64,000 bases of DNA from Raillietiella orientalis (taxonomy: Eukaryota): positions 1 through 64,000 of the forward strand of contig JAYWIR010000074.1 of assembly GCA_036172245.1 (NCBI GenBank), in the 5' to 3' direction. The position numbers were made by a program, and so were the translations under genes. Shown here piece after piece: positions 4,587-63,910 of this stretch (position 1 is its first letter; every line of letters begins with the position of its first letter). The notes beneath the pieces are model-generated. The model made no database searches. It was given only the letters and a program-made list of their open reading frames with translations, and was not told the DNA's origin.

Positions 4587-4598
4587 ATCTCTTGTGCT

Positions 4599-9536: not shown

Positions 9537-12373
9537 ATATATATATCACCCGGATTTGTCTGGGCATTTATTATACAAATTTTTATGTAATAAAAATTTC
9601 AAAATAAAGTCTTTGAAATTATTCTAAAACTCTTTGAGCAGAACAAGTGGTTCCGCCTGGCTGGACACACTTCCCGCTGCAAATTCACAGGTTGCAGAGA
9701 TCCTGCCCGGATGCGAAGGGGGAGGGAAACCTACAAACAAGAACAGAAAAAAGAAACATCAAAACCAAGGGGAGGGCAATGTTTTTTAGGAGGGAAGGGC
9801 TGGCATGGGATCACTGGTAGCTTCAAGAGGTACTCAGCATCCTGTTCAGGATACGGAGATGTGCCGGACGTAATGATATTAGCCGAGACCATCGGGAAGC
9901 CTTGTGAATGTTTAGGGCCGTCCATTGGATGGCGTTTCGGCTGTTATGACGTCTGTAGGACGCAGCCCATTTGGCCAGGCTTCCGCGTATGCAGCAGAGG
10001 ACTGCTACACACGCAGTTGCTGGCAGGGCGTCCTGCATGAAGACGCGACAGAAAGTGTCTTTGGGTCGCCCCCGGGAATGTTCAAAATCGTCGACAATCG
10101 ATCCCACATGGGTCGAAGGGCGACACACTCAATGATGAGGTGAAGGACGGTATCTCGTTCATCACACACTGCACAATTCGCAACCACAATTCCGGAAGTG
10201 CAATGGAAGAGGCGTGCTTTGCATAGGAGTCCCCAATGCAACACCAGCAGCGCCGTCACTTGCCATTCCAAGGAGAATGTGCAAGAATCCCAGCACACTG
10301 GGGGCCACTTCACCTTTTCCGGAGGTATGCCGAGTAGCTTGCCCCAGCGCACAATTCCTTTAGACGTGAAGGTCAGGGTTGCAGCGTCCCATAACTCCCG
10401 AGTCGTAGACGCCTTTAATGGTTTTCTCCTGCCTCGGATGAGGCAGGACACTTCCCACAATGCTCGTTCGTTGCCGTTCCCGATGTTCAAAAGGGAGGAC
10501 AGCACGGGAGCAAGGGGGTCAATGAAGCCCACAGCAGTTTCCGCGGATTGTTGATTATCTCCTTCAGGGGCTGTAGAGCGCTCGGTCCTCGACGGGGACA
10601 GTGGTACTCCGCTTCGCTCGTGCCATTGATCTGGGCCCAAGCGTAAACTGACTCCTGAAGCCAGGCAGTGCACTTCGCGGGGCGGCAGGAGATCCAGGAA
10701 TTCTCCCTCATCAGGACGACCATCTGGAGCAGATGAAAGCCAAAGCTGTAATTGAGGCTGCGCGCGTACGCAATGAGGATCGAGGACAATCCGTCGCAGC
10801 CGGTCGCTCTTCTGGCGAGGAGCCGTGCGGGTTCACACCATGATGTCAACCATAAGCTAGCCGCAAAAGATAGCTCCCTAAAGTTTATGTGTTTTTGTAT
10901 GCGCTCCATCGTCAAGAGGCTCAAAGCACCGTCCCTGCGTGGAGCACACAAGTCTATTAATCGGAATCGTGACCTCGCTGTTCCCCAAAGGGCAGTTCTG
11001 AGGAGGGCCTTGGTCCGTCTCTTTATAATTGGCGGTGCGGGGCCCACAAAAAGTAACGGACGAAGGAGGGGGGCCGCGAAAGCGTTCCACACCGCTGCCT
11101 GTTCCTGCAAGTCAAACTTGCCGTTTCGGAAGGGTCCGATCGCCAGCTCTACCTTATGAAGACGGTCGGAACAGGCATCTGCAACGCAGAAGTCCCCCAA
11201 CGGAATGCCAAGGTACTTCAGGCACCTGCCCGTGGGGATCCCCAAGCGGATCCAGTCCGGCCGTCCAGCTCACGCCGTATTTCTTGAAAGAAGTGGTGAT
11301 TTTGCCACAATTGTGGATTTCTCTCTGTTCACCCGGAGGCCCGTCCCTCGGCGCAGCAGCTTGAAGAAATCTTCTAGCGCCTCCGCTGGGGTGGACCCGG
11401 GGAGCAGGAGCAGAAGATCATCGGCATAGGCCGACACGGCAGGCGTGCCGGGACACAAGCTCAGCAGGGTTGCCAGAGTCATCCTGTATGCCCTCAGCAC
11501 CAACTGGGAGTAGATGCTGAAGAGCAAGGGGCTCAGACTGTCACCCTGCCTTATGCCTCGACGAACCGGAACGCCGTACACATGTCGGCCGCTAAAAGCG
11601 ATGTTTATGATTGCGAAGCGCCAGCAGGAGCGCAGGTAAGACCGGAAGACTGCCGGGGATCCCAAACGTTCCAGGACTTCCAGGAGTTCCTGGTCGACGC
11701 AGTCGAATGCTATACGCAGATCGACTGCGACCGCAAGTGCTCCTGGCGCGGCTCTTCCATGAAGGGCGTCCCCTCCCTGGTCAGAGGAGAATCCAGGATT
11801 CTCTTGACCTCCCTGCGCTTCGCTTTGTAGCAACTGCCACCATGTACTGGCGAGGAACAGGTTGGGCTCCATGGATCGTTCTGGAACAGCGTAAGTCTGC
11901 TCCAGACTCACCACGGATTCCGCCACCCGTCCCAGTCGCTCAGCCCAATGTTTGGCCAGCGACTTTGCATCCGCATTCACTATGGTGATATGAGGCCAGT
12001 TGTCTACGTTGCGGGTGTCTCCTTGTTTAGGAAGAAAACGTACTTTGGCTGACCGGAACGACATGGGAACGTCCCCTTGTTCTCGGATCAGCGTGCATAG
12101 TTAGTGCACCAGGGGTACCAGCTACGCTGCGAAGAGTTGGTAAAACTCCGCGGGCAGGCCGTCTTCCCCTGCTGCCTTGCGTTTTTTCTGTTTTTCAATG
12201 GCAGAAATAATCTCCGCCATTGAGAAAGGCTCCTGTATTCGTTCTCGATCCTCCTGCTTCAATGCATGGGCGTCCTGCGGCAGCAATCGCTGCGCAAAGG
12301 CGCGCTCTGTGGTTCGCAGCGCGTAAAAAGCGAAGTAGAAATTCCGCAAGATGCGGCAAACCTGCGCCGGTGC
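9537..12373 (-). mobile_element. Family F copy F1: RT, C-terminus and 3' UTR
   Basis: ORFs 12122-12349, 11270-12064 (GIRQGDSLSPLLF, YADD), 10487-11245 and 10005-10673 (CAVCDERDTVLHLIIEC). The 3' end is AATAAAtgcccagacaaatccgggtga(ta)n. Confidence 0.88.
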
Positions 12374-16617: not shown

Positions 16618-19600
16618 ACGGACGACTTCGCCCTGTTCAACGTAAGTCCGGTTCGCCGATGCAGCAGGTCGAAGAACTCCTTGACCGCCGCAGCCGGGGT
16701 GGACATAGGGAGCAGCAGCAGAAGGTCGTCCGCGTATGCTGAAACGGCCGGCGTACCGGCACAGTCGTGCGGCAGATGCGCCAGAGTTCCCCTGTACGCT
16801 CTCAGTACCAACTCAAAGTAGGTACTGAAGAGCAAGGGGCTCAGGCTGTCTCTCTGCCGGTTCCCACGCCGCACCGGCACGCCGTGCACGGTCTGCCCGC
16901 TGAAAGTAACATTGATGAGCGCGTCGCGCCAGCAGGAGCGCAGATAGGCCACTAATGAGTCCAAGAAGCCCAAGCGTTCCAGAAGCTCTAGAAGGAGATT
17001 CTGGTCGACGCAATCGAATACTTTCCGCAAGTCGATTGCGACCGCAAGGGCTCCCTCCCCCTCCCGACCATCCAACCCCCTGCCGGCGCACGCACCGGAA
17101 TGCCGGCTGCACACCAAGCTCCTTTCATGTTGGAGGTCTAGCCAGGTGGAAGCGTGGAACAGGTTCGCCTCAATGCTTCGCTTGGGAACAGGATATGTCT
17201 GTTCCGAGCTGATGACGATGTTGACAACGCGTCCCAAACGCTCTGCCCACATCTTGGCTATCAACTTGGCTGCCGAATTCACTATTGTGATCGGACGCCA
17301 GTTGTTCATGCTCCTCAGATCTCCTTTTTTAGGGAGGATCCGCACCTTTGCCGAACGAAACGAGGCGGGAACGTCACATGTTTCGCGTATCAGCAAGGTG
17401 TGTTGCTGTACCAGGGGGGTAAGCTCAGCCGCGAAAGTTTGATAAAACTCCGCGGGCAGGTGGTCCTCTCATGGAGCCTTTCGCCTCTTGAGCTTTCCGA
17501 TGGCCGAGAGGATCTCGTCCATCGTGAAAGGCTCGTCGATGGTCTTTGTCTGCTCCTCCCCGATCGCTGGAGCGCCTTCCGGAAGCAGGATTCGTGATAC
17601 GTTCCTCTCCGGAGGTGCCCTGGCATACAGGGAGGAGTAGTAACTCCGCAGCAGGTCGCGGATTTGGGCAGGTGCCGAGTGCTCCTGGCCCTGATCGTCC
17701 AGTAAGCTGGCCGATCCGGACTGCCAGGCTTGCCTCTCGGATCCCGCTTTGTATTTTGCCAGCCTGCGGATGTCGTGGGTCATGGCGTAACGACCGGCCT
17801 GCAGGTAGGCTTGTTCGTTACGGACCCCGGTCCCAAAACCCGTAGGTAGGCGGTGCAGAAGGAACTGGTCGCAGAACTGCAGGACCGACCGCTTGAAGCG
17901 GTCCCAATCCTGGAGTTTCCGCAGCCTGAAGCTCCGTATGAACGTGCGCTGATGTTCCGCCGCGTCCGGGAGCTCCAGCCAGTCCCCTGGGAGACGCAAC
18001 GCTCACGAGGGGGGCCCCTGTCGCGCGGATGGATCTCGAGGACCATCGGGCGATGGTCCGACAGCTCGCACGGTAACTTGCGGCGCCTGCCCAAGTGAGG
18101 GCACAGGTGCTCGTGAAGAAACACGTGGTCAATGCTGTCTTCCATCCCCGGTTAACTGTCCAACAATTTACAGGTGTGCACCTCCATGCACACCTCGTTG
18201 ACCAGGTCACGCTCGAAATTCTGCCCATCTGGTTTCAGGCGAACGTTGAAATCGCCTGCAACCAGATGGGCATCCCGCACGCCTGCTTCGGTCAGCCAGT
18301 CTCGCCGAAGGGCAAAGAAAGAGTCTTTCCTCGCCCTCCTGGTCATCAGGTCCGCGCCGCTCGGTGCGCACACGTTCGTGACGATCAGATCGATCGAGTT
18401 GGACCACCTGAGAGTCAGCTGGGCGACACGACCGTGATCGTCGAACCCCACGCCCCGAGCCGCGGCCTCGACGGCTGGCCGAAGCAGGTAGGCGACACCG
18501 CAACTTTTCGCTCTCCCACACCTGTACCACAGCCGCCCTCCGGAGATCCGTTCGATCTCTTGCGCTTGTTCTGCAGAGATCACGTGGATCTTCTGCAGCA
18601 GCGCAAGGTCGTAGGACTCCAGAAGGGCGGCCATGTCTGGTCTCCTACCGGTGTCTGTCATGCCGTTCACGTTCCAAACGGCGATGCGGAGACGACGGCG
18701 GGAGGAGGTTCCCGGCATTACTGCTGGGAAGATTAAGGTGTGATGGAGCCCTCCTCTTGCGAGGCAGGCGGGATGTCCATGGGGGTTTCGGCCTTCTCAG
18801 GTAACTGAGCCACCTGTTCGGCCTTTACTCCCTCCATCCCCTCCGTGTCCGCGCGTGAAAGTCTCTCGGGCGATGGGTCCCGAGATTTTCCCACGCTCAT
18901 GGCACCCTCGCTTGCGGAAGCCATCTCTTCCCCTTCGACGGGGGAGACGAGCTTCCTTGGCTTTGTGGACTTAAGTCCGGCCTTCTTGCGCGGTGCCGTG
19001 GAAACGGAGGCTGCGCTTCCGGTCTTAACCTCGGGGTCGGAAGTGGGGGACTCCTGAAGGGAGGCCGGACGCCTTACATCCTTCTTGCCAGCCTTGGAGG
19101 GTTCTGGCTGCAACGAGGCTTCCAGCTCCTCCGCGGCTCGCGCGAAGGCTACGTCATCGATGGTGGTGTCGATGACGGACGCCGCCGCCAGCTCGCTCCC
19201 CTTGCTGTTGACAGAGTCAACAGAGGGGTTGTCGTCGGTAGCGACGAGTTCTTTTTCGAGCGGTGAGGAATACGCTCGACGACAACGCTGCATTCTTTAA
19301 TTTGCTCGCTTACCTGCTGTTTTTTCTGGCGGTACGCGAGCTTTTTCTCCATCCTCCTCTCCTTCTTTGATTTTTTGGCCAAAGATACCTGCCACTTAGG
19401 CTCCCTGCTTGTTCCCTCGACTTGTTCGGCGTTGTTCGCCGGGGTCTCGGGTGCAGTCTGGGCCTTGGGCGCGGGTAACACAGCCTTCGCGGCAGCTTTC
19501 GCCGCCAGCCTTTTCTGCAGAAGCGGGGCACGTTTTTTAAGGATTCTTTTAAAAACCACCCGCACTGCTGCTTTTAGGCACACCTCCCACGTGTGTCCCA

Positions 19601-20430
19601 TGGCTCCGCATACTTGGCACTGTATATTGGTACACCTCTTTTTAAGGTGGCCCGACGTATTGCAGAAGCCACAGTATTTCGGCTTCCCCACATACCAGAA
19701 GTCGACGGTTTCGCCTTCCACCACCAGTTTGTGGGGAAGAGTGCAGCCCTCCCGAACGGTTACGCGCGCAGCAGTGAGGCCGTGTTGCAGCCCCGTGTAG
19801 TCCTCGAAAGGACTTACTTTCGTCCACTGCGCTTGGACCGTTCCGAACTGTTTCAAAGCGGCGCGAACCTCTTCTTTGCGCATTCGCGCAGTAACGCCTA
19901 ACAGGTGGAGCACTACGCTGCGGTCCGCCGTAGTGAGGAGCCTGCGCGTCTCCATCACAAGAAGATTTTAAGCAGTCTTTGGGCCAGCTCTGCATGTTTG
20001 CAGATGACCTCAACGTACTGACCCCGCTGCGAATGGTCATACCGCTGAGCTCCTCCTCTTTCACATCGAGAGCGCGCATGCCTTTCGAAAATGCGCGCGC
20101 GCTCTCTAAAGAATATAAATTGCATACCTTGTAGAACAATGAGGTGTTGTACCCCTCCTCTACATTGGCCGACAATTCCGCCGCTGCTGCAGGCGATGGC
20201 GCCGCCACAACGGCGCTCCACGCCCGCGCTGCAGCAGGGACCGATTCTGTGGGGGAGGATGCCCCCACCTCTGTCCCCTCTTGGGACGGCGTTGCCGCTG
20301 CCCCCTGGCCATCCCTGATGTTCGCGTCAGGCATCGCGGCCTGATCGACCTCCGAAACACACGACGCTCGCTCTGAAGGAGACTTCCTGGCACGAGGAGC
20401 ACCGAGAAAACACGTCTACCGTGGAGGACG
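16618..20430 (-). mobile_element. Family E copy E1: 5' UTR, ORF1, EN and RT (fused to D1)
   Basis: 5' end cgtcctccacggtagacgtgttttc. ORF1 20334-18718 is broken; EN 18152-18718; RT 16431-17396. Homologous to E2. Confidence 0.88.
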
Positions 20431-22632
20431 CGAGGCGTTCTACCGTGTAAACCAGAAGCTGCTTTTGGAGCTTGTGGAACGCCTTGGGTTCCCGGCGCAA
20501 CTCCTGCTGATATTTGCGCGCGTGCTGGCGCCACGCGCTAGACTGCATCACTTTCAGCGGCTGCCGCGTGTATGGTATTCCCGTTCGTAGGAGCATCCGA
20601 CAGGGCGACAGCTTAAGCTCGTTGCTATAGAGCATCTTGTTTGAGTTCGTGCTAAGAGCATACAGGCTGACGCTGTCTCACTTGCGAAGCTCCTGCACGG
20701 GAACGCCTGCCGTGGCCGCCTACGCTGATGACCTGCTTCTTCTGCACCCCATGTCCACCTCGGCGTCCAGTGTCGAGGATTTCTTCGACCTGATTCGTCG
20801 GGGAGCGGGCGTGAGCGTGAACAGACAGAGAAGCGCGGTCGTTCCTGTGGGTACGTCGTGGGAGGGGCAGTCCGACTGGATCCGCCTGGGGATCCCTACG
20901 GGCGGGTACTTTAAGTACCTTGGCGTTTCGTTGGGCGCTTTCGGCGCAGGCAAAGCGTGGGCGGACTGTCCTCGGAAAGCAGATTTGGCCATCAGACCGT
21001 TCTTTAACGGCAAGTTCACCTTGCAGGAACGGGCGACTATTTAGAACACCTTTGTGGCCCCCCTCCTCCTTCCCCTGTTTTTTGTTTTGGAGTCCCCATA
21101 TGCGGCGAAACAGCGGGCTAAACGCCTGCTCAGGAACGCTCTCTGGGGTCCGGCGAGATCCAGGTTCCGCCATAAAGATTTGTTAGCTCCGCGTTGGGAT
21201 GCTGTTTTGGGTTTACTGACAATGGAGCGAATCGGACTGCAGGTGCAGTTCCGAATGCTGGCACTGTGTGCCCAGCTATGGACATCAATTCTGTGTGTGT
21301 CAGCTGGCATTCTCCTGCGGAGATGCGCCGGAAGCGGAGGATTTCTCTCGCTTTTGCCGGGCAGTCAATACAATAAGCGGGGTTTCGGGTTTCCATTGCG
21401 GCAGTTGACCGCACTTCTGGAAGCTCACTCGTGGAACTCCTGCCGCCCAATGAACTTTGAAGCTTGGCAACAGGAGTCTGTTGAATCCTGGGCGGCGTTC
21501 CAAGGAATACGCCCTGAAGATCTTCGCTCCCTGCGTCAATTTTTTCCACGATCCTTGGAAGAAGTACTGCAGGACGAGGTGAAGTTTTCTACCCTGGTTG
21601 CCACGCCTCTTACCGCAGCGCTGTCTGCCCTCAGGGCAAGAAACGACAGTCACCAACCGGCGAGGTGGGAGGTTTCCTGCACGATAGCGGCAAAAACCAA
21701 AATCCTTGGCGCCTAGAAGACCAGTAAGTTGGCCGACGCCGCCACTCCTCGTATTACTGCAAAGGGACTCCTCCTGTGGGCAGAGGAACTTGCTGCCCCC
21801 CCCGAAGAACTTGTAGTCCCTTGACAGTGTATTGACAGTTCGCTGCTTCCCCTTGCTTGGAAACAAGCCGTGCTGCTTTTCGTTCACTGGGGCTTTCAGT
21901 GCAACGAGCGTTGGCATCCTGACTCCGGGGGACTTGCGTCTGCGAACTGCGTTCGGTGCGGATCGACGGAGTCGATTCCGTACCTACATCTGGACTGCGG
22001 TGTCCTACAAGGACTGTGGCGTAGGCTGGCAACAGCACTAATGCATCCCGTGGACACCGCAAGAGACTTGCTGCGACGATTCTTCACGCCGAGCGGGCTG
22101 TCACTAAGCGCAAGGATTGCAACCATCGGTTGCATACGCGCGATAGTTTCCGTCCGCCAGGCGTTGGTAATCAACGGACAACACCAAGAGGTAATCAGCA
22201 AAGCATCCTTCTACATGGGAGCATCCGCTAGATGGCCTCATTTGACGGAGGAGACCAAAAGGAATCTCGCCGCAATACACCGCCGGTTTACACACGCTCA
22301 GCAGCGGCCAACCCGGTGATCATTGCTTTACCCTCCATAAACTATTTTTGTATTTTCTTTTTACACCCGCGTCCCCATAGGCTCCGGAACATTTTAGGTG
22401 CTCTTCGTTTAAATCCCCGTGAGTACGGAGCCTAACCAAAAACCTGTTACCCTTCCCTCCAGTTTTTGATTTTTGTTTGTTTCCCCTCATTCCTCCCACG
22501 CTGCGAGCGGTTTGTTTACCAGGGCTGCGTGCCGGTAATTTTTCTATGTTCTTTGTCGTTCTGTTGGTTGAGGACATTGTCCCTGACTAGTTTATTATTA
22601 TTAATAAACGCCCCGGCGTGACCGGGTGATAA
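20431..22632 (+). mobile_element. Family B copy B1: RT from the KAFD motif to the 3' end
   Basis: YADD in 20637-21044 and CVRCGSTES in 21870-22319. Closely similar to 26735-28922 and ends AATAAAcgccccggcgtgaccgggtgataa. Confidence 0.9.
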
Positions 22633-22640
22633 ATTTCAAT

Positions 22641-22659
22641 CGAGTGCGGACGTGTTTTT
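22641..22659 (+). promoter_or_regulatory. Conserved 5'-terminal motif CG-N(n)-GACGTGTTTT (representative; putative internal promoter)
   Basis: The same motif or a close variant lies within ~25 bp of every intact 5' end. The role is inferred. Confidence 0.55.
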
Positions 22660-22719
22660 CTTCGCTCTCGTCTCCGTGCTTTCATCCGCTTCATCTTGGC
22701 GTCGTACATTTTGACGACG

Positions 22720-24642
22720 ATGTCGACCCAACTTGAAGCTACTGAAGTTGGAGGAACAGCATCCGGATCTGCAATCGCGGAACCGACGGCCGCCTATACT
22801 TCGTCGTTCTCGCCAATGGAGAGCAGTTTTGCTGACGTTGCTGCCACAGCAGCCGTCAAAGGGAAACCACTCGACGAGTCTGAGTTGCGGGCATACGTAG
22901 CCCAAGGCTATAGAACTGCTCTCCGATATAATGTGAGTGGTTTTCTTTCTGCGCGCCACGGGAATCAGTTCAACGATGAACTGACCCGTGTTGGCGTGCG
23001 GGAGGAGGACCTTCTCGCGATTATGCCCGTAAAAGACATGGGCTATTTCAAGGTGCGTTGCAAAGACGCTGCACTTGTGCAACGCTTGCTGCGCACCCCG
23101 TTGTCGATCCGTGGCCAGAAGGTCTTCCCGGCCGCCATGGGCGACCCATTTGTGGCGGAGATTTTCGACATCGAGTCGGAAATCTCCGATATTGATATTC
23201 GGAACGCGTTGGCGAAATTCGCCACGGTCCATGCGCTGTGGAGGGTGCGTAGCAACCTCAAGGACTTCCCGTCCATACACAGCGGAGTCGATGGAGTCCG
23301 GCTTACAATGCCGGACCGCCGTCTGCTGCCCACCAAACTACAGGTGAAAGACACGGTCGTTCACCTGTGGTTCGTGGGCAAAGTAAGAACGTGCGAGCAA
23401 TGCGGGAAGGAGGGGCATTGTTTGGATAAATGCCCCTCTGGAAAATGCCATTATTGCAAACTATCCGGGCACCAATTGAAAACTTGCCCGGATCTTTTGC
23501 GAAAAAAGGCAGCCGCGAAGCTCCATCTTAAAAAACAAAGCGCGGATAAAAAGAGAAAATCTGCGAATAACCTGGAGACCCCACGGCAGAAATTCCGAGA
23601 AAACGCGAGGCGGCATGTCGCCCCAAAGCAGCAGGAAACCTCGCACGCGAAGCCCTGCGCGCCCCCTCTCGCGGAAGGGAAGCCGCAAAAGAAAGGGTGC
23701 GGGGAATCCGGGGCAATGGTAAGTCCTCCTAGGCGCATTAGCTGTCCTTCCCAAGCACGCCCGGCTCTTTCGGAGTTCGAGCAACCGGCGGGGACGTCAA
23801 TGGACAACGGCGGTAAGGACACTTCCAGTACCGTCAGATCCATTCCTTCACCTTCTGCAGTGGCTGAGCAGCCCAAATCGGGTAAGAAGGGTTGTGCAGT
23901 GTCGACTTCGAAAGTCGGCAAAAAAAAATCCGCGTCGCGATCCAACACCGCGAAAGCGGAGAAAAATCTCACGCCGTCGCAATCGGAGAGCAAGCTCTCG
24001 ACTGGCGCGGATGCCATGCCAACCAAGGGATTAAAAGCCCTTCCGAAGGCAGCGTCCATGACGAGCGTGTCGAAGCCATCCAAAGTGCTCCCGTCCAAAG
24101 ACGCGGATGGCTTCAAAGATGGCAATGGAGAACAATCTCCATTTACGGCGCCACGCGAAGTGAGGAACCGTAATGAAGTAAAGAAGACTTCAGCAAAGGT
24201 CCCTGGTGCAAGTGCGCGAGAGCACGCTGAAAACGGGCGCGCCGGGAAAGCAGCCGTCACCAAGAGCGATGCTCTGGGGACGGAAGACGAAAACAGGACA
24301 GCTGTCAATCCAGCAGAACCTGTCAGTGCTTTGCCGAAGGCCGAAACCCGATTGAACATGCGCCGGTCGGACTCCGAAATGGATGCCGTTCCGATCAACG
24401 AGACGAGGACAACTCGTTCGAAAGCGTGTGCGCGCCGATCAAAAGTAGGCTGCCAGGCAACGCTCGCCGCGAAGCCACGCGAAGTCTCCACGAAACCCGA
24501 CGAGGTCAAGCCTGGCGTGGAGGCATTACATGCATGTAGCACGATAGAGGACGGTGGAGAACATCCCCTCCAGCCAGTCGTGCTGCTCGCCGTCTGCTCG
24601 CCAGATAAAGCGAGCAAAAAGCCGCTACCTTCCCAGCAGTAA
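22720..24642 (+). CDS. ORF1 nucleic-acid-binding protein of B2 (two CCHC knuckles, K/S/A-rich tail); open frame
   Basis: Uninterrupted ORF (track 22696..24642; first ATG 22720) with CEQCGKEGHCLDKC and CHYCKLSGHQLKTC. Its stop overlaps the ORF2 ATG. Confidence 0.85.
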   Translation: MSTQLEATEVGGTASGSAIAEPTAAYTSSFSPMESSFADVAATAAVKGKPLDESELRAYVAQGYRTALRYNVSGFLSARHGNQFNDELTRVGVREEDLLAIMPVKDMGYFKVRCKDAALVQRLLRTPLSIRGQKVFPAAMGDPFVAEIFDIESEISDIDIRNALAKFATVHALWRVRSNLKDFPSIHSGVDGVRLTMPDRRLLPTKLQVKDTVVHLWFVGKVRTCEQCGKEGHCLDKCPSGKCHYCKLSGHQLKTCPDLLRKKAAAKLHLKKQSADKKRKSANNLETPRQKFRENARRHVAPKQQETSHAKPCAPPLAEGKPQKKGCGESGAMVSPPRRISCPSQARPALSEFEQPAGTSMDNGGKDTSSTVRSIPSPSAVAEQPKSGKKGCAVSTSKVGKKKSASRSNTAKAEKNLTPSQSESKLSTGADAMPTKGLKALPKAASMTSVSKPSKVLPSKDADGFKDGNGEQSPFTAPREVRNRNEVKKTSAKVPGASAREHAENGRAGKAAVTKSDALGTEDENRTAVNPAEPVSALPKAETRLNMRRSDSEMDAVPINETRTTRSKACARRSKVGCQATLAAKPREVSTKPDEVKPGVEALHACSTIEDGGEHPLQPVVLLAVCSPDKASKKPLPSQQ

Positions 24643-26346
24643 TGCGGAGAATCGCCTCTTCTTGTCGTCTGTCCGTAACGTGTTGGAACGTGAACGGACT
24701 ACAGAACGACGAGAAGAGGCGATTAGTAGCCAACGCCCTGCGCCCCTTCGACCTCGCGCTCCTGCAGGAGATTCACGTAATCTCAGTCGAGCAGGCAGCC
24801 GAAATCGAGGAGCGCGCAGGCGGAACGCTACATTGGCGGTGCGGCGGCGCACACACCTGCAGCGTCGCGTTCCTCGTAAGAAGAAAAATGGCGGAAGCGG
24901 TGCGTAGTGTTCGTTTCGATGACGACGGACGGATAGGCCAGCCTGTCATCAAGTGGTCCGAGTCCATCGATCCCGTCGTTACGAACGTCTACGCGCCGAG
25001 TGGCTCTCGCTTCCTCGAAGAAAGAGTAGCCTTCTTTGGTGAGGTGCAGAGCCACTGGCTCAACAACTCCGGTTTCCAAGTGGCGCACCTCGTCGCTGGG
25101 GACTTCAACGTCCGACTGCTCTCCGACGATTGGAGCCGCCCAAGGGAGCGCGCGCTGCCCATCGAGATGTGCGCGTCCGTGCACGCTGTTAACTTGATGG
25201 TCAGCGAACCTGGAATGGAAAGATCGCACGATCACGTTTTCCTCGATGAAAACCTGCATTCGCGTGTGGGAAGGAGAGGAAGATTGTTGACTAGGCTTTC
25301 TGACCACCACAGGTTGGAGCTTGAGACCCTTCCGCCAGGCAGGGGGCCTCCGTTGCAAAGCTGGAGGATGCAGGCGGATTGGCTTAGCCAACCAAACGCT
25401 GCAGAGCATCTACGTGGATACCTCCGAGGCTTTGCCATTCAAGAACTTTCGGACTGCGACGATCTCAAAAGATCTGTCCGCGAGTTCTGCTGCCAATTCC
25501 CATTGCACCGGCTACCACGCGTTTTCGGAGAGGGCGTGGCCAACAGTAAAGACTTTTTGCAAGCCCGCACGTTTTCGAGACGCGCATCTGTCTGCGTCTC
25601 GCAGAGTACAAGGCGAGGGCCGAGCTCCAGGTCTGGCAGTCCGGAGCAGCATGCCTGTGGGACGACAAGGTTCAGGAATGTTCGGCCCCAGCGAAAGTAA
25701 GCCGCATTGTGAGACGCTACTACTTCTCGCTCTACGCGGAATCCCCGACGGAGGATATTCTTTCTGAGATACTCCTGTCTCAGGATGCTCGTGTTGTCGG
25801 CGAGGAGGAACGCGAACGTCTCGACGAGCCCTTCTCGGCGGATCAATTTTCGTCCGCTATCGCTGGGCTGGAGAGACGAAAGGCGCCAGGCGAGGATGAG
25901 CTCCCTGCAGAGTTTTATCAGTGCTTTGCAGTAGAGCTCATTCCCTTGATGCTGAAACTTGCGACGCTGATGAGTGAATCCGGGAATGTCCCGGATTCCT
26001 TCCGCTCAGCGAAGGTGCGTCTCCTGCCGAAAGGCGGAGACTTGCGCCAACTTAACAACTGGCGTCCGTTCACCTTGGTGAACTCGGACGTCAAGTGGTT
26101 TTCCAAGCTGTGGGTTGCGCGGTTAGGAAGTATCGCGGAATCTGTGGTGAGCCCGGAACAAACCTACGCGGTTCCGGGACGATCCATGGAGGCGAAAATC
26201 CTTTTCGCGCGTACATGGATGCAGCTGCAGGAAGTTGTGGCGCAGCAAAGCCAGGCTGCTGCGAAAGTCACTGCCGAAGGCAAAAAGTACTGGCGCCGAT
26301 GACAGGAGGGAACGCCAGGTGCCTGGGCGGTCGCGGTCGATCTCCA

Positions 26347-26746
26347 CAAGGCGTTCGATTTTCACCCGGATTTCTCCGAGTCGTTTATTAAAAAAATAAA
26401 CTTTGTAAACAAATTATTAATGGCTGTGGCAATGCTCCAGCCAGAAGCTAAGAACCACGACGCCTGCGAATTCACCGGTTTCTAGACCGGTACTGTCCAC
26501 CAAGGCAGCAGGGGAAAAAGGAAAAACAAAAAAAAAAAAAAAAACTGAACAAACAAAAAAAAAAAAAAAAAAAGGGTGGGAGGGAAGGGGAAGGGATGCC
26601 GCTGCCCCCTGTCCATCCCTGGTGGTCGCGTCAGGCATCCCTGCCTGATCGACCACCGAACCAAACGACGCTTGCACTTAAGGAGACTTCCTGGCACGAG
26701 GAGCACCGAGAAAACACGTCCACCCTGGAGCACGCAAGGCGTTCGA
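26347..26746. repeat. 12-bp target-site duplication CAAGGCGTTCGA (26347-26358 / 26735-26746)
   Basis: Exact direct repeat. Removing the insert restores DLHKAFECVNEKLL. Confidence 0.93.
26359..26734 (-). mobile_element. 376-bp internally deleted family-E element (5' UTR plus ORF1 start fused to 3' UTR)
   Basis: 26598-26734 matches the E1/E2 5' ends and 26359-26597 matches the E2 3' UTR (50540-50763). It is flanked by a perfect repeat caaggcgttcga. Confidence 0.92.
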
Positions 26747-29248
26747 ATGCGTAAACGAGAAGCTGCTTTTGGAGCTTATGGAACGCCTTGGGTTCCCGAC
26801 GCAACTACTGCTGTATTCGCGCGCGTGCTGGCGCCACGCGCTAACCTGCATCAGTTTCAGCGGCTGCCGCGTGTATGGTATTCCCGTTCGTAGGGGCATC
26901 CGACAGGGCGACAGCTTAAGCTCGTAGCTATGAAGCATCTTGTTTGAGTTGGTGCTAAGACCATACAGGCTGACGCTGTCTCACTTGCCAAGCTCCTGCA
27001 CGGGAACGCCTGCCGTGGCCGCCTACGCTGATGACCTGCTACTTCTGCTCCCCATGTCCACTTCGGCGTCCAGTGTCGAGGATTTCTTCGACCTGATTCG
27101 TCGGGGAGCGGGCGTGAGCGTGAACAGAGACAAGAGCGTGGTTGCTCCTGTCGGTAAGTCGTAGGAGGGGCAGTCCGACTGGATCCGCCTGGGGATCCCC
27201 ACGGGCGGGTACTTTAAGTACCTTGGCGTTCCGTTGGGCGCTTTCGGCGCAGCCGAAGCGTGGGCGGACTGTCTTCAGAAAGCAGAGTTGGCCATCAGCC
27301 CGTTCTTTAACGGCAAGTTTACCTTGCAGGAACGGGCGACTTTTTGGAACACATTTGTGGCCCTTCTCCTCCGTCAGCTGTTTTTTGTTTTGGACCCCCC
27401 CTATGCGGCGAAACAGCGGGCTAAGCGCCTGCTCAGGAACGCACTCTGGGGTCCGGCGAGATCCAGGATCCGCTTTGAAGGTTTGTTAGCTCCGCGTCGG
27501 GATGCTGGTTTGGGTATCTTGACAATGGAGCGAATCGGACTGCAGGTGCAGTTCCGACTGCTATCACTGTGTGCCCAGCTATGGACATACCCCCTGTGTG
27601 TGCCAGCCCGCATTCTCCTGCGGAGATGCGCCGGCAGCGGAGGATTTCTCTCCCTTTTGCCGGGCACTCAATACAGGAAGTGGTGTAACGGGTTTCCATT
27701 GCGGAAGTTGTCCGCACTTCTGGAAGCTCACTCGTGGATCTCCTGCCGCCCAATGAACTTTGAAGCTTGGCGGCAGAAGTTTTTTGAATCCTGAGCGGCG
27801 TTCCAAGGAATACGCCCTCAAGATCTTAGCCCCCTGCGCCAATTTTTTCCACGATCCTTGGAAGAAGTACTGCAGGACGAGGTGAAGTTTTCTACTCTGG
27901 CTGATACGCCTCTTGCCGCAGCGCTGTCTGCCCTCAGGGCGAGAAACGACAGTTACTTACCGGCGAGTAGCACGATAGCGGGAAAAACCAAACTCCTTGG
28001 CGCCTGGGAGACGAGTGAGTTGACGGACGCCGCCACTCCTCGTGTTACTGGAAAGGGACTCCTCCGGTGGGCAGAAGAACTTGCTGTCATCCACGAAGAA
28101 CTTGTAGTTCCTCCACAGTGTACTGACAGTTCGCTGCTCCCCCTTGCTTGAAAACAAGACGTGCTGCTTTTCGTTCATTGGGGTTTTCAGTGCAACGAGC
28201 GTTGGCATCGTGACTCCGGGGGACTTGCGTCTCCGAACTGCGTTCGGTGCGGATCCACTGAGTCGATTCCGCACCTACTTCTGGACTGCGGTGTCCTACA
28301 AGGACTGTGGCGTAAGCTGGCAACAGCACTTATGCATCCCGTGGACACCGCAAGGGACTTGCTGCGACGATTCTTCACGCCGAGCGGGCTGTCACTATGA
28401 GCAAGGATTGCAACCATCGGTTGCATACGCGCGAAAGTTCAGGTCCGCCAGGCGTTGGTTATCAACGGACAGCACCAAGAGGTAAACAGCAAAGCATCCT
28501 TCTACATGGGAGCATCCGCTAGATGGCCTCATTTGACAGAGGAGACAAAAAGGAATCTCGCCGCAATACACCGCCGGTTTACACACGCTCAGCAGCGGCG
28601 AACCCGGTGATCATTGCCCTACCCTCCATAAACCAATTTTGTATTTTCTGTTACACCCGCGTCCCCATAGGCTCCGAAACATTTTAGGTGCTCATCGTTT
28701 GAATACCCGTGAGTACGGAGCCTAACCAAAAACCTGTTACCCTTCCCTCCAGTTTTTGATTTTTGTTTGTTTCCCCTTATTCCCCTCACGCTGCGAGCGG
28801 TTTGATTACCAGGCCTGCGTGCCGGTAATTTTCCTATGTTCTCTGTCGTTCTGTTGGTTGAGGACATTGTCCCTGACCAGTTTATTATTATTAATAAACG
28901 CCCCGGCGTGACCGGGTGATAAATTTCAATCTCCGTCTGCTAACAGGTGAGCCAGAAACACAAGAGAACGCGATGAACGAGTTGTGCGTTGCCATGCGTG
29001 CGCGCAAGTTGTTCGCGGGTGAGAGAAGAATGGTCCGCAGCATCGACCACGTCTTCCTCGACGCTTACCTGTGTTCACGGGTCGGAAAACAAAGGAGGGT
29101 TGCGACGACGTTGTCGGACAATTCCCGGTTAATTTTCGAGATGCGGTTTCGCGACAAAGGACCGCCATGCAGGAATTGGCGTCTGCCGGGGGACTGGACG
29201 CGACTCTCAGGTGCGAAGGAATTCTTTTGCGAATAACTGAGAGGCGTC

Positions 29249-32200
29249 ACGCTCCCGAATCTCCATTGAAACCCCGGTGAGCCGGGACGTTTATTCTCAC
29301 GAATAAACCTATACAATCTGTGACTGGACCAGTAGTCCAGCCACGCCTTGGAAAGATATAGCTTGCCGGGCTACCGGTGCGCAGTCCGGCGCGGGCGAGC
29401 TCGGCAGCAGAGGGGAGGGGGAACGTAACAAAAAGAAAACTAAAAATAAATAAAAATCTGGGAGGGAGCGGGAAGGGATCACAGTCTGCTGGGAGGGTCC
29501 GTCATCCTCTGTAGGATGCCGGAAGCTGTTTCTGCTTGTGTGGTCCCAGATGGGGCCATCAAGTCGCCATTCTGAGAAAACGAGCGGCATACACGTTGGC
29601 ATCCCTGTCTCTGGATCCTTCCGTCGCTTTGCTCCATGCCACGACGATCGCGCGTAGGCAGCACAGGGCTGCAAGCGAGGCCGCTGGAGGCAGGGCGTCA
29701 CGGACGAAGAGGGAGCGCAAAGCGTCTCTGGGGTTGTCTCCGGGCATCCCCAGGGCTGCGGCAAAGCGTTCCCATAAGGGACGGAGGGCAACACAATCCA
29801 CTAAAAGGTGGGGGAGGGATTCACTCTCTCCGCACCTGACACAGTTAGGGTTTACACCCTCCCGCGTCCAGTGGTGTCGGCGGGCGTTGCAAGGAAGCCC
29901 CCAATTCAACACCAGAAGTGCCGACTGTTGCCACTTCATGGGTAGGGTTCGCGAGTCCATGAGCAACGGGGGCCAATCGAGATGTTCCTCTGGAACATGC
30001 AGTAGCTCTTCCCAGCGCAACAGTCCATTTGGGGTGGTCCTCGGGGTCGCAGCGTTGGTGAGCTGACATGTTCTCCAATCCCAGATCTTCTTTGCCCTGC
30101 TCTCGATCTTGACAGTAACCTCCCATTGTGCCGCGACGTCGCTGCCCAGATGTTCCCGTAGGGTGAGCAGTACCGCAGCAAGGGAATGTCTTTGTGCCCA
30201 CGCTCTCCTTCGGGGATTCTCGATGATTTCTCGGAGCGTGCGGCGGGCATGCGGCCCGAACAGAGCTATTCGATCGTGTTGCGGGCTCTGCTCCTGAATC
30301 ATCGCCTACCTGCGGACGGTTTCCTGCAACCAGGCAGCACCGTTCGCGGAGCGTAGGAGGACCAGAACCGAGTTGTTCTTCACGAGCTTGGCCGCCCTCC
30401 GAAGTTGAAGTCCGCATTGGCAGATGGGGCTTCGGAGTGCAAAGTAGGACGAGAGTCCCGCATTGCCGGTGGCTTGCTCGACGAGGAGACGTGCAGGGAG
30501 GCACCAAGGGGTGCACCAATTTTCTGCCATAAAGGCAAGTCGGAACTGGATCTGTAGCTCCAGCCGCTCCAACGTCAGGAGGCCCAGGCCACCATCCCGA
30601 CGAGGAGCGCACAAGTCCGAAAGACGGACGCGGGGCCTCCCTCTGCCCCTAAGGGCGATCCTCTGGAGGTCCTTCGTCCTCTTCTTTGACTCCGCTGAGG
30701 GAGGGCAAACAAAAAGAAAGGGGCGAAGGAGGGGGGCCGCAGACGCGTTCCACGCCGCGGCATGTTCCTGCAGGTAGAACCTGCCGTCCTGGAAAGGGCC
30801 GATCGTCGCCTGAGCCTTCTGAAGGCAGCCGGACCACGCTTCCGCAGGGGAGTAGTCCCCCAACGGCACACCAAGGTACTTGAAGTAGCTCAGCGTGGGT
30901 ATCCCCAAACGGACCCGCTCCTGCTGCCCTGCCCACGCCGCTCCAACTGGCATTACGGACGACTTCGCCCTGTTCACCGACAGTCCTGTTCCACGACTCA
31001 GCAGGTCGAAGAAGTCCTCGACCGCCGAGGCTGGGGAGGACATGGGCAGCAGCAGCAGAAGATGGTCCGCGTACGCCAAAACCGCAGGCGTACCGGGGCA
31101 ATCGCACGGCAGGTGCGCAAGAGTCTCCCTGTACGCTCTCAGCACCAATTCGAAAGAGGCGCTAAAGATCTGGGGGCTCAGGCTGTCTCCCTGCCGTATG
31201 CCGCGTCGCACCGGTACTCCGTGCACGGCTTGCCCGCTAAAAAGAACATTAATGAGCGCGTCGCGCAAACTGGAGCGCAGGTAGGCCAGCAAAGAGGCCG
31301 GGAAGCCCAAGCATTCCAGAAGAACGAAAAGGAGATTCTTGTCGACGCAGTCGAATGCTTTATGCGAATCGACTGCGACCGCGAGGGCTCCTCTCCCCTT
31401 TCGACCATCCCGTCCCCCACCGACGGACGCACAGGAATTCCGGTTGCTTATTATGCTCCTTCCTTGTTGGAGCTCTAACCATGTGGAAGCGTAAAACAGG
31501 TTCGCCTCCATACTTCGCCCAGGAACAGCATATGTCTGTTAAGAGCTGATGAAGATGTTGGCGACCCGTCCCAGGCGCTCTGCCCACAGCTTGGCTGGCA
31601 ACTTGGCGTCCGCATTCACTATTTTGATGGGACGCCAGTTTTTTATGCTCCTAAGGTCTCCTCCCTTCGGGAGGAGCTGCACCATTGCTGAATGAAACGA
31701 GGTGGGAACGTCACCTGTTTCACGGATCAGCAAGGTGAGCTGATGTACCAGGGGAGTAAGCTCAGCCGCGAAAGTTTGATAAAACTCCGCGGGCAGGCCG
31801 TCCTCCCCTGGAGCCTTCCGCCTCTTGAGCTTTCCGATGGCCGAGAGGATCTCGCCCATTTTGAAAGGCTCGTCGAGGCTTCTTTTCTCCTCCTCCTTGA
31901 TCGCTGGAGCACCTTCCGGAAGCAAAAGTCGTAAGACGTCTCGCTCCGGAGGCGCCCTGGCGTACAGGGAGGAGTAAAATTTCCTCACTATCCCGCGTTT
32001 CTGAGCAAGAACCGAGTACTCCCGGCCCTGGTCGTCCAGAAAGCTGGCCGACCCGGATTGCCAGGCTTGCCTCTCGGCTGGCGCTCGATACTCTGCTAAC
32101 CTGCGCATGTCGGGGGTTCTCGCGTAACGTCGGGCCTCAAGATAGCACCTTTCGTTACGCGGCCCCTCCCCAAATCCCGCAGGTAGGCGATACAGGGGGA

Positions 32201-34798
32201 ACTGGTCGCAGAACTCCTGGACCGACCGCTTGAAGCGGTCCTAGTCCAGAAGTGTCTGCATCCTGAAACTCCGAATACACGCGTGGAGGTGCTCCGCCGC
32301 GTCGGGAAACTTCAGCCAGTGCCCTGGCAGACGCCACGTTGACGAGGGGGTGCCCTTGTCGTGCGGACGCAGTTCGAACATGATCCGACCATGGTTCGGC
32401 AGCTCGGATGGTACCTTGCCGCGCCTGCCCAATCGAGAGCATAGGTGCTGATCAAGGTACATGTGATCGATGCTGCTTTCCATGTCCGTGTCCCCGGCCA
32501 ACAAGTTGCGCGTGTTCATTTCTGCGCACAACTCGTTGACGCGGTCCTTCAGTGTATCCGGCGCACCTGAAAGCAGGCGCAGGTTGAAATCACCTGCGAT
32601 CAGGTGCGCTTTGCGAACTCCTGCATCGGTCAGCCAATCGCTTCTCAGGGCAAGGTAGAATTCCCTTCTTGCCTTCGCCCTCAACGCGTTGTTTCCGCTA
32701 GGAGCGTATAGGTTGGTGACGACCAGGTCGATAGAGTCGGACCAGCTGAGAGTCAGCTGACCGACGCCACCTTCGTCATCGAACCGAACGTCCTTTATTG
32801 CGGTTCCGATGGCTGGCCGAAGCAGGAAGGAGACACCGCTTGCTTTCGCGGTGCCGCAACGCCACAACAGCCGCCCACACGAGATGCGTTCGATCTCCCG
32901 GGCTTGATCTGCGGAGATCACGTGGATCTCCTGCAGCAGCACCAGGTCGAAGGATGCCAGAGTGGCGGGCACGTCACGCCTCTTGCCGTCGTAGCTTAGC
33001 CCGTTTACGTTCCAACAGGCGATCAGAAGACGACGGCGAGATGCGATTCCCGGCATTATGGCTGGGAAAGTGGCGTCGCGACACCTGCCGCGGGGCAGGT
33101 GTAGGAGAGGTCCATCGGTACGAGGACGGAGGCCTCTTCAGGCGCCTGGGGTACCTTTTCGGCCTCCATCCTCACCATTCCCTCCGTGTCCGAGTGTGGA
33201 ATTCTCTCGGGCGACGGGTCCCGGGAGTTTCCCACGCTCATGGCACCCTCGCTACCGGAAGCCATCTCTTCCCCTTCGTTGGGTGAGACGATCTTCCGGG
33301 GCATTGTGGACTTTCGTCCTGCCTTTTTGCGGGGTGCTGCGGAGATGGATGCTGTGTTTCCGGACATCACCTCGGGGTCGGAAGTGGGCGACTCCTGAGG
33401 GGAAGCCGGACGCCTGACAGCCTTCTTGCCAGACTTGGGGGCAACCGGTTGCAGCGAGGCAGCCAGCTCCTTCGCGGCGCGCTCGAAGGCGACGTCATCG
33501 AGCGTGGGCTCGATGACGGATGCCGCCGCCTCGCTACCCTCCTTGTTGACTTTGTCAACGGAGGGTTGAGCAGGGGCAGCAGCGAGTTCTTTAGCGCCGC
33601 ATTCGTCGATGGCGGGAATCCGCTCTACATCGACGCAGCAGCTAGTAATTTTTTCGCGGCGCAGTGCGGTTTCGCACCGTCTCGCCACGTTCTTTCCCTT
33701 CTTATGGGAGTTTTTCTTGGGGTCGAACTTCTGCCATCCTGGCTCTTGAGCCTCGCCCTCGAACTTTTCGGCGGTTTTCGCCGGGGTCTCGGGGCTGGCC
33801 TTCGCCTTGTTGGCGGAGGTAACCTCCTTAGCAGCAGCACGAGCAGTCAGCTTTTTCCTCTTGTTAGCCGCGCGCGTTCTCGCGTTTTTCGCGAACACGA
33901 CGCGGACTGTGTTTTGGGGGCACACCAGACGGGTGTGCCCCGCTTGTATGCATTGGTGGCACTCCACGCTCGGACCATTCATTTCAAGGTGACCGTAGCT
34001 GCTGCAGCAGCCGCAATACTTGGGTTTCCCCACGTACCACACGTCAACGGATTCACCGTTGACGGTGGGTTTGTGGGAAAACTCACATCCCACGCGAACC
34101 GTCACTCGCGCTGCACTCAGGCCGCCAAGCACCCCGTCGTAATCGACAAAAGGAGTAGGCTTTCCCTACAGCGCATAAACAGTTGCAAATTTTTCTAATT
34201 CGTTCCGGACGACCTCCTTCGTCATCCGGAACGTGATACCGGTCAGGTGAATGATCACCATCCGGTCTTCAGTAATGGAGAGAAGCCTCCGGCTGCCCAT
34301 AATTACGGGGGTTCGCAGAAGTCTCTGCGCAAGAGTTGCCTCCTTGCAGATAACCTCCACAAATTGACCCCCGCTTCTGACGGACATAGCCAGAAGCTCC
34401 TCTTTCTGTACGCCGAGAACGCGCATCGCCTGTGAGAAGGCGCGCGCGTTCTCGGGAGAATATAGACCGCCTACCTTATATAGAAGGGGTGGGTTATACC
34501 CCTCCTCCAGGTAAGCGTGCATTTTCGCCATAGCCGCTGGCGTAGGTGCCGCAGCCACGGCGTTCCAAGCCCTGGGTAGGGCCGGGGGCGCATCTTTGCT
34601 GGCGGGAGCCTCCACTGATGCGGGAGCTCCCACCTCCATCTGCTCCGGGGGCAATGAGGTCATCGCCCCCGGATCCTCACCGGTGGTGGTATCAGGCATT
34701 TCTGCCTAATCCTCCACCCACACCACGCACAAGCACCAACGGAAATGGAACTCAGGAGCAACGAAAAGACACGTCCGCTCGACGCTCCGGAATCTCCA
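29249..34798. repeat. 17-bp target-site duplication ACGCTCC(C/G)GAATCTCCA (29249-29265 / 34782-34798)
   Basis: Direct repeat with one mismatch bracketing C1. Confidence 0.92.
29266..34781 (-). mobile_element. Family C copy C1, full-length (~5.5 kb) with 17-bp TSD
   Basis: 5' end cgagcggacgtgtctttt. ORF1 34699-33056 has one stop; TAATG overlap; ORF2 33056-29479 has stops. The 3' end is AATAAAcgtcccggctcaccgggg. Confidence 0.94.
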
Positions 34799-58600: not shown

Positions 58601-59239
58601 GAATGGGAGTTCTCCTGCAAAATAGCGGGAGTCAGTAAGCTCCTCGGCAGCTGGACGACAAAGGAGCTGGTGCAAGCCGCCACACCTCGGAATCGGGCGA
58701 AGGGACTGCTTCGGTGGAGCGAACATTTAAGTGTGCCCCCCGGAGAGATAGTGGTTCCCCCCGTTTGTTTGGACAGCTCCGTGTTCCCCCTTAAGTGGAA
58801 ACAAGATGTGCTCCTCTTTTTACATTGTGCATTTCACTGTAATAGGCAGCGTAGCATCGTTTCCGGGGGAGCTGCTTTGCCAAACTGTTTAAGGTGCGGA
58901 GAGATCGAGTCTTTTCCGCACCTTTTGTTGGACTGCGGTGACCTCCGGGAACTGTGGCGAAGGCTCACTTCGGCCATCATGCCACAAGGAGGCACTGCCA
59001 TTGATGTGCTGCGGCGCTTCTTCAGCAGAAATGGACTTTCGGTTGGCGCGATTGTCGCAACCATGTGTTGCGTTCGCGCCATCGTGAAGGCCCGCTACGC
59101 CCTGGAGTTGTCATCGCAGCGAAGGGAGGCTCACCTGCTTGCAGCTCACTTCATGGAGAAGGCTTCAAGGTGGTCTCATCTTCGTGACAAGGTGAATGAG
59201 GACATCACCGGCATACATCGCCGGTTTACACCCCTTTGA
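55666..59239 (+). CDS. ORF2 polyprotein of A4 (APE endonuclease, reverse transcriptase, CCHC), ~1190 aa after correcting one +1 frameshift
   Basis: ORFs 55663-58107 and 57776-59239 join across a T7 run (58015-58021) that is T6 in A1. All RT motifs are present; the EN motif reads GDFT instead of GDFN. Confidence 0.9.
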
Positions 59240-59565
59240 GAACGGCGTAATCCGGTGACCCCTGCGACCTCTCGCCCACCCATACCCCGTCCCCGTTCGC
59301 TCGGTAAAATTTCCGGTGCCCATGCTTTTATCCCCGTGTCTTCCAGAGCGATCCCAAAGACCCTTATCCCGTCCTCCTTATTCATTGTTTTTATTTTATT
59401 TTGGTTTCTTTGTGTTTCCCGCCCCCCCACACCGTTCACAAAACTGTTACTCTGGCCTGCGTGCCAGCAATATTCTCTTCATTCTTGTTCAGTCGTCGGT
59501 TAGAGTTTGGTTCCCAACTGGTTTATTTTGTATAATTGCTTTTTTTTTTTGGTTATGTTATATGG

Positions 59566-59595
59566 AATAAACGCCCCGGCGTGACCGGGTGAGAA
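59566..59595 (+). terminator. 3'-terminal signal AATAAA plus GC hairpin (representative; variants at all element 3' ends)
   Basis: AATAAA-cgc-cccgg-cgtga-ccggg-tga. Related ends lie at ~4557, 9545-9572(-), 14973-15001(-), 22603, 26359-26388(-), 28893, 29266-29295(-), 41655, 47242, 50540-50569(-) and 63690. Function is inferred. Confidence 0.7.
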
Positions 59596-61324: not shown

Positions 61325-61455
61325 CACCTTCTTCGCCACTGAAGGCGACGTTGCCGCCGCCCCCTGGCACTCCACCTTCTCTAGAGGCGACGTTGCCTCC
61401 GCCACCTGGCACTCCATTTCTTCAGGAGGCGACGTTGCCACCGCCTCCTGACACG
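61325..61455 (-). repeat. About 3 copies of a 42-bp in-frame repeat in the E2 ORF1 N-terminus
   Basis: aggcgacgttgcc recurs at 61343, 61385 and 61427, encoding ATSPxExxECQxAx units. Confidence 0.85.
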
Positions 61456-63719: not shown

Positions 63720-63905
63720 ACCTGTGCAGGGGCTGAGCACTCATGGCCTTAAGCGTTTAGTAAGCTCGCAAAGCTGGATTGCCAGACCTGTCTCTCAGCC
63801 CCAGCTTTATATTCCGCCAGGTTGCGGACGTCGGGATTCCTGGAGTGAGTACGGGCGTGTAGGAACGCACCGACATTCCTGATTCCTAATCCGAAACCTG
63901 AAGCC
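63720..63905 (-). pseudogene. ORF2 linker fragment of another sibling element
   Basis: The minus strand reads SGFGLGIRNVGAFLHARTHSRNPDVRNLAEYKAGAERQVWQS..HECSAPAQV. Confidence 0.8.
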
Positions 63906-63910
63906 TTTGC

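Follow-up and report, generated by a model that had tools for sequence, protein, structure and literature searches.

A LINE family probably addressed to the reverse transcriptase KAFD codons of sibling LINEs in Raillietiella orientalis

Known targets of site-specific long interspersed elements (LINEs) comprise ribosomal DNA (rDNA), small nuclear RNA genes, telomeres, microsatellites and one DNA transposon family. The usual logic of such elements is that of a safe haven: they land in sequence that is both multicopy and dispensable. The sequence-specific LINEs with an AP-endonuclease (APE) of the R1/Tx1 type include R1, TRAS/SART, Tx1L, Keno and Mutsu; Tx1L targets another transposon. This report examines a 64 kb stretch of the Raillietiella orientalis genome (contig JAYWIR010000074.1, positions 1 to 64,000; hereafter the window) and a LINE family in it, termed E, whose copies lie antisense in the codons for the K-A-F-D (KAFD) motif of the reverse transcriptases (RTs) of related LINEs.

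Like R1/Tx1-type elements, E has APE and RT, one fixed target in a multicopy element, a fixed orientation and a constant short target-site duplication (TSD). It differs from them in that its target consists of codons for a catalytic-region motif in the RT of sibling LINEs, and in that the siblings hold other addresses on the same second open reading frame (ORF2). The likeness to L1/Tx1 elements is one of resemblance (via the ORF2 of the sibling element A2, which is closest to human L1 ORF2p) and of Cys/His motifs in ORF1 and ORF2. In a full-text literature search, supplements aside, no LINE was found described whose address lies in the RT codons of other LINEs; catalytic-region codons of this kind would be a new target class.

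Two further systems invite comparison. The trypanosome elements ingi/RIME and L1Tc/NARTc have a 12-bp TSD, a short two-ended derivative (RIME) and a recurrent position in the RHS multigene family; E likewise has a 12-bp TSD, a miniature copy made of its two ends (mini-E) and a recurrent position in a multicopy family. Unlike ingi/L1Tc, whose target is a host gene family, E has an RT as its target, and no RNase H family was found at an E-value of ≤0.01 in the two ORF2 tails scanned, namely those of A2 (57752-59239) and of an H14-like element (15322-16374). Like R2, E occupies only part of a multicopy target; R2 has another type of endonuclease (restriction-like, acting on 28S rDNA), and among solved relatives the A2 ORF2 matches human L1 ORF2p best (5e-46) and R2 far more weakly (5e-14).

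Zepp and ZeppL are green-algal L1-type LINEs that insert in existing LINE copies and thereby form LINE-only clusters; Zepp nests in its own copies, giving arrays of 5'-truncated 3' ends, and in the parts of these reports drawn on here a base-exact target is not stated (PMC8226300; bioRxiv 10.1101/2025.03.28.645958). As far as those parts go, the L1-like LINEs of the window resemble Zepp/ZeppL in building LINE-only clusters by entering existing LINE copies, and E differs from Zepp in being complete at the 5' end, in entering other families and in using an exact 12-bp site. Zepp-like self-nesting is not seen in E: of the three copies with ends, none lies inside another E copy (0/3) and all have complete 5' ends (3/3).

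The preferred reading, to which a probability of about 0.75 is assigned, is that E is an L1/Tx1-like, sequence-specific APE LINE whose address is the KAFD codons of sibling RTs, and one of several site-holding sibling families. If true, this would provide a natural parasites-of-parasites system in which the victim's own enzymology keeps the target conserved. A further gain would be a set of closely related APE endonucleases with different specificities of ~12 bp, useful for learning how nucleases read DNA.

Family E and its junctions at the KAFD codons

Nearly all of the window (GC ~57%) consists of related non-LTR retrotransposons nested inside each other. KAFD positions, junctions and family addresses are given as residues on a ruler, the single long intact ORF2 (55633-58107, 824 aa; part of A2), on which flanks were placed by blastx. 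The features that bear on E are as follows.

20431..20442, plus strand: KAFD site of host B1 in decayed form, CGAGGCGTTCTA; it borders on the 5' end of E1 and aligns with the B2 and F4 sites
20431..22633, plus strand: 3' portion of host B1, KAFD through to the element end; TTTCAATC and the 5' end of B2 come next
22642..28923, plus strand: host B2, full length (ORF1, ORF2, 3' end), split by mini-E
26347..26358, plus strand: left TSD copy in host B2, CAAGGCGTTCGA, the K-A-F-D codons
26735..26746, plus strand: right TSD copy in host B2, CAAGGCGTTCGA
50528..50539, plus strand: left TSD copy in host F4, TAAAGTTTTCGA
61574..61585, plus strand: right TSD copy in host F4, TAAAGCTTTCGA
11703..11714, minus strand: empty KAFD site in F4inv, an uninterrupted F4 paralogue, TATAGCATTCGA-CTGCGTCG
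16619..20430, minus strand: E1, the 5' 3.8 kb of E with the 5' terminal motif; 80.6% alike to E3 over 3718 nt; ends at a chimeric break
26359..26734 (376 bp), minus strand: mini-E, in which 229 nt from the 3' end of E meet 147 nt from its 5' end
50540..54228, minus strand: E3, 3' part (3' untranslated region (UTR), RT, most of APE)
59597..61573, minus strand: E3, 5' part (APE N-terminus, ORF1, 5' end at 61573)
54229..59596, plus strand: A2, an A-family element antisense in the E3 endonuclease region, with a TSD of ~47-49 bp (54180-54228 / 59597-59645)

Family E is a ~5.6-kb L1-like LINE on the minus strand, encoding APE and RT. The RVT_1 domain was found by Pfam in both E1 (2.8e-19) and E3 (5.9e-13). 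Exo_endo_phos scored in the close relative E' (2.1e-11) and in neither E1 nor E3; by tblastn, reference APE residues 1-247 align to E1 and 8-275 to E3. The 3' end carries AATAAA, a short GC hairpin and a terminal ...GGGTGAAAA; in plus-strand reading it begins TTTTCACCCGGATTTCTCCGAG, in two identical copies at 26359 and 50540. The 5' end is precise, reading ...GAGGAGCACCGAGRAAACACGTC..ACG on the plus strand in three matching copies that end at 20430, 26734 and 61573. With all three 5' ends complete, E would seem to be copied efficiently to full length and to have an internal promoter. A hairpin within the 5' 147 nt (GGTGGTCG..TCAGGCA....TGCCTGA..CGACCACC) is conserved and is present in E' too. 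A ribozyme at this end was considered and is unsupported, the match resembling that of hepatitis delta virus scoring 14.8 bits against a threshold of 44; Rfam over the window gave nothing at gathering score, and only noise at the E 5' end.

The span of E3, 50540-61573, holds 5617 nt of E sequence plus the nested A2. The left end of mini-E is the E 3' terminus and its right end the E 5' terminus, the interior being deleted; for this single copy, a non-autonomous derivative like RIME and a local deletion are both conceivable. E1 has lost its 3' part because it recombined with another RT, position for homologous position, at 16618/16619, where the E1 RT is joined in register (~residue 716) to an H14-like RT, as in ectopic recombination between families.

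An original prediction, made from the letters of the window, placed three antisense E insertions at KAFD sites, and all of these junction sets were found where it had put them, that of B1 by its 5' junction only (20430/20431). All five E junctions fall at ruler residues 580-583 (K-A-F-D), with the host antisense to E in the blastx placement of the flanks. An exact 12-bp TSD accompanies both complete insertions (2/2); in F4 the two copies, TAAAGTTTTCGA and TAAAGCTTTCGA, agree at 11 of 12 bases and enclose E3. The B1 flank was placed at ORF2 residues 606-658, a little downstream of the KAFD site, again with the host antisense to E. The B1 site is missing from a list of motif matches with at most one mismatch because CGAGGCGTTCTA has two mismatches to the motif as first predicted. 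The site in F4inv serves as the empty-site comparison for F4.

Public data were also consulted. The one public run found is of DNA (share 0.20), with none of RNA listed. In it, a contig skips 26196-27084 with 496 letters between, as would a B-like copy without the 388-bp insert. A second contig from this run, 3755 nt long and 96% alike, ends 7 nt past the E 3' junction, which is suggestive only. Of the run contigs compared with the window, 76 of 122 are less than 90% alike, and the A-rich core of mini-E was masked. Read-through ORFs, in which the host frame continues past KAFD through 42 open codons of antisense E, were also searched for, and no match was returned. The E 3' 20-mer was met at three metagenome-contig and six genome-contig loci; six of these nine matched the window by 20-27 nt only and three by the seed only, and all nine were treated as chance matches and dropped.

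Independent events, mechanism and alternatives

For INDEPENDENCE and chance, identity in inserts was compared with identity in hosts, and TTCGA and octamer sites were counted, within the window. If a single ancestral insertion had been spread as a composite by segmental duplication, gene conversion or co-mobilisation, the junction would simply have been inherited. The setting lends itself to this, the window having many duplications at 91-100% identity and many diverged elements that have recombined with each other. For the pair B1/E1 and B2/mini-E the divergence is indeed equal in insert and host: the E 5' parts are 89% alike and the hosts 91-94%. The comparison of B2 with F4 gives the opposite result. 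Here the identity of mini-E to E3 is 93-94% for the 3' part and 83% for the 5' part, against 69-72% between the hosts to either side of the insert. The TSDs have bases particular to each host (CAAGGCG versus TAAAGCT) and the flanks beside the junction are likewise host-specific, leaving no co-conversion tract. An origin of all copies from one insertion is accordingly rated as very improbable. E1 and E3 are 80.6% alike over 3.7 kb and represent two E subfamilies, so that the address has been kept across subfamilies. By these comparisons there were at least two independent events, and possibly three, in which two E subfamilies struck one and the same 12-base position in the host families B and F.

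A second alternative holds that E prefers a short motif of ~5-8 bases (e.g. GCKTTCGA), of which KAFD is simply the commonest carrier in a region composed nearly throughout of LINE ORF2s; it predicts E at many non-RT sites elsewhere in the genome. In its favour, TTCGA alone is invariant among the intact occupied sites, the wobble bases of K and A being variable. The window contains 143 TTCGA sites, of which ~12 are KAFD; TTCGA alone does not explain two KAFD insertions, because a cutter with this specificity would produce two independent KAFD matches with p ~0.007. The octamer GCKTTCGA occurs 12 times and is KAFD-linked in five cases, so two KAFD insertions under an octamer preference have a probability of (5/12)^2 = 0.17 (for 2-3 events). 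Against this stand the seven octamers outside KAFD, none of which is occupied (0/7), and the sharing of the site by two E subfamilies that are 19% apart. A preference of this kind is judged unlikely, if less so than the single-insertion account. The full motif with at most one mismatch occurs 12 times against 2.99 expected. Recurrence in two host families and for two E subfamilies marks the insertion of E at KAFD as site-specific rather than coincidental.

As a whole, the geometry would fit a sequence-specific APE LINE that inserts by target-primed reverse transcription. In the proposed mechanism, the E endonuclease would nick the coding strand of a sibling RT gene just after TTCGA (the F and D codons), and the freed 3' OH would prime reverse transcription from the 3' end of E RNA (...GGGUGAAAA). 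E would lie antisense to its host because the cDNA is primed from the nicked coding strand. A cut in the second strand 12 bp upstream would then yield the 12-bp TSD, YAARGCKTTCGA. Read-through transcripts of E would have UCGAA past the 3' end of the element, and base-pairing of this stretch with the primer could make the junction more exact. The junctions, TSDs, orientation, domain content and at least two independent events can be read from the sequence; beyond these we infer which part of the protein recognises the target, in which order the strands are nicked and whether E gains any advantage under selection.

Such pairing is also the basis of a third alternative, namely homology-guided entry, in which E RNA or cDNA pairs (through read-through UCGAA... 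or 5' microhomology) at pre-existing nicks or breaks in RT genes. The half-site TTCGA|A is palindromic, and the pairing sequence would be expected in read-through transcripts of any resident E. Five paired bases cannot, however, single out ~12 of 143 TTCGA sites; a constant 12-bp TSD with fixed orientation is the signature of two staggered enzymatic nicks; and E encodes its own APE domain. Entry of this kind is given very little weight.

A number of observations weigh against an E addressed to KAFD, the octamer calculation among them. There are only three E copies with ends, all within one 64-kb window, and every copy there is dead (stops, frameshifts). Given the equal divergence noted above, a single event followed by duplication may account for both B1/E1 and B2/mini-E, one of the two copies having an internal deletion; more generally, event counts are uncertain because the region underwent ectopic recombination and duplication. 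The 3' hairpin is conserved, yet compensatory changes were found in none of its five pairs (0/5). Finally, no element occupies nine of the 12 KAFD sites, and two of these nine match the motif perfectly, in G (TAAGGCGTTCGA, at 35696) and in A2 (CAAAGCTTTCGA, at 57369).

Occupancy and conservation of the KAFD sites

The three occupied sites are those of B1, B2 and F4; the nine empty ones belong to A1, A2, F4inv, G, H14, E' and its duplicate, E1 and E3. With nine of 12 empty and two of these perfect, the niche is not saturated. The original prediction had proposed a count of interrupted against empty KAFD sites by codon variant. Made for the window, this count (3 versus 9) gives an Ala wobble base of G or T in all three occupied sites and of A in six of the nine empty ones (one of the six being a duplicate), a difference that is not significant (Fisher p ~0.09, hand calculation). 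Escape of the empty sites via this base is thus suggestive at most and was not retained as an explanation. E's own KAFD codons, GAAAGTATTCGA and AGAAGCATTCGA, differ little from the target, which leaves E without clear immunity.

Antisense targeting of KAFD with a 12-bp TSD in two host families holds up; the further view of it as an adaptive weapon is unsupported. The KAFD codons had been described as among the most conserved, and hence hard to escape. At the DNA level, the KAFD 12-mer ranks at the 83rd percentile among sibling ORF2s (2395 windows of 12 nt), with at least 15 non-overlapping windows more conserved; no escape pressure is visible, given the empty sites with perfect matches. The broader idea that all targets are the most conserved DNA was rejected, the other address sites lying at percentiles 54-60 in four cases and 86 for B. 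It had further been proposed that each insertion kills a competitor's RT. Each insertion does break the host ORF2; as a strategy, the proposal is unsupported, E being nothing special in this respect: five further families of the window are likewise found within the ORF2s of siblings, and three of them recur at fixed positions of their own.

The pattern fits safe-haven logic as well as competition, other LINEs being the only multicopy, dispensable sequence for E here. Most sites are empty, E's own site is nearly the target, and the other, less conserved addresses of the siblings point to ordinary site-specific logic. Loss of the host RT follows from the address and need not be its purpose.

Sibling families and the composition of the window

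Pfam finds RVT_1, Exo_endo_phos and zinc knuckles in window ORFs on both strands, and tblastn recovers ~20 ORF2 pieces with 46-88% aa identity to the ruler. Recurring fixed positions are seen for families A, G/H and F/J and single sites for B and E', assignments that rest on one window and partly on duplicated copies. Entry is antisense in five of the six families; B enters in sense. The junctions of the siblings are as follows.

4589-4600; 54180-54228 / 59597-59645; ~38056-38068: A-family junctions with ATCTCYTGYGCT (A2, x38042, A1, A3)
22634-22641; 28924-28931: B-family 3' ends followed by TTTCAATC, at the 'DFN' codons of host G
29267..34783, minus strand: E', the closest relative of E (75%), antisense in host G at residues 277-281 and not at KAFD
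47268 onward; ~44319-44330; ~63880-63915: G/H junctions (H14 3' junction, residue 308; G-duplicate 5' junction, ~304-306; x63928 5' junction, ~298-305)
63721 onward; 9530-9546; ~49862-49880: F/J junctions (3' junctions of F4 and of F4inv, each in a host of its own; 5' junction of J, inside F4), plus duplicates

The address of family A is antisense ATCTCYTGYGCT at residues 51/61-66, the '..QAQEI' codons just after the LQE motif of the endonuclease. A2, 5'-truncated by ~590 nt, lies in E3 and x38042 in the E' duplicate; A1 is directly upstream of A3 in tandem, with ATCTCYTGYGCT between them. Family B uses the 'DFN' codons of the endonuclease (~residue 165) in sense, with (A)TTTCAATC. B2 sits in G, and B1 and B2 are head to tail, one physical site having been re-used; the empty B site in the inverted duplicate of G is an uninterrupted GTAGATTTCAATCGCC (~42025-42045, minus strand). 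The G/H address is antisense in the 'P.GFG(E/D)' / 'GFGEG' codons, ~residues 298-308, in three different hosts, and the F/J address is antisense in the 'APA(Q/D)V' codons, residues 359-364. In F4inv, (TA)5 stands between the 3' end and the target. The insertion of E' is a single event with the TSD CTCC(C/G)GAATCTCCA (29257-29270 / 34784-34797). The different addresses of E and E', which are 75% alike, imply a target switch between close relatives.

On this basis it may be that at least six sibling L1-like families divide each other's ORF2 into private base-exact sites, forming gene-free, LINE-only blocks, possibly centromere-like, that leave host genes untouched; we regard this wider picture as tentative, at somewhat less than even odds. 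Such a community would be self-sustaining because each new copy makes new targets for the others. If siblings do hold different addresses on the same gene, this would be a sequence-level mechanism for LINE-only nests.

J and its copy are 91-100% alike, and the F hosts only 73-85% on both sides of KAFD. An interpretation of 45624-50539 / 16619-11703 as a duplication that ends at KAFD was wrong, the 91-100% part being an H14+J composite. An inverted duplication at 93% (28920-32904 versus 42030-38053, centre ~35.5-37.5 kb) carries G with E' inside. The B2 and x38042 insertions postdate it, because each is present in one arm only. x38042 retains 761 nt and lies beside a 371-bp loss of host sequence.

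The A2 ORF2 shows 49-54% aa identity to E1, and its tail carries CX2CX7HX4C. The A2 ORF1 has two CCHC knuckles, with homologous stretches in E1, E3 and E'. A zf-RVT match at 15322-16374 is weak and lies 3' of the 16618/16619 break, which makes it part of the H14-like partner rather than of E.

Element ends are alike across families. The 3' ends (e.g. 59567-59596, 26359-26388) carry AATAAA, a 5-bp GC hairpin and an A-rich tail of 2-5 nt, and long poly(A) is absent from them in all families. The polyadenylation signal of chlorophyte algae is TGTAA, which AATAAA does not match. An A/T-rich tract is found within the 3' UTR, ~150-230 nt in (e.g. 50690-50745). A GGACGTGTTTT box, which may be an internal promoter or initiator, is found ~10-20 nt from every complete, precise 5' end, at the following positions.

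20405-20417: GGACGTGTTTT box
22648-22660: GGACGTGTTTT box
26709-26721: GGACGTGTTTT box
34764-34776: GGACGTGTTTT box
38030-38042: GGACGTGTTTT box
44306-44318: GGACGTGTTTT box
61548-61560: GGACGTGTTTT box
63928-63940: GGACGTGTTTT box

Public relatives are scarce: one of 19 matches is close, and two of the 150 best matches among 1.84 billion cluster representatives exceed 50% identity. Judged by these matches, the lineage is barely sampled in public data. The sole close public relative is the metagenome protein P0002 (64% identity, 619 aa), which starts at ~residue 352 of the ruler. This start adjoins the F/J landing site (359-364), and the contig of P0002 might contain a junction.

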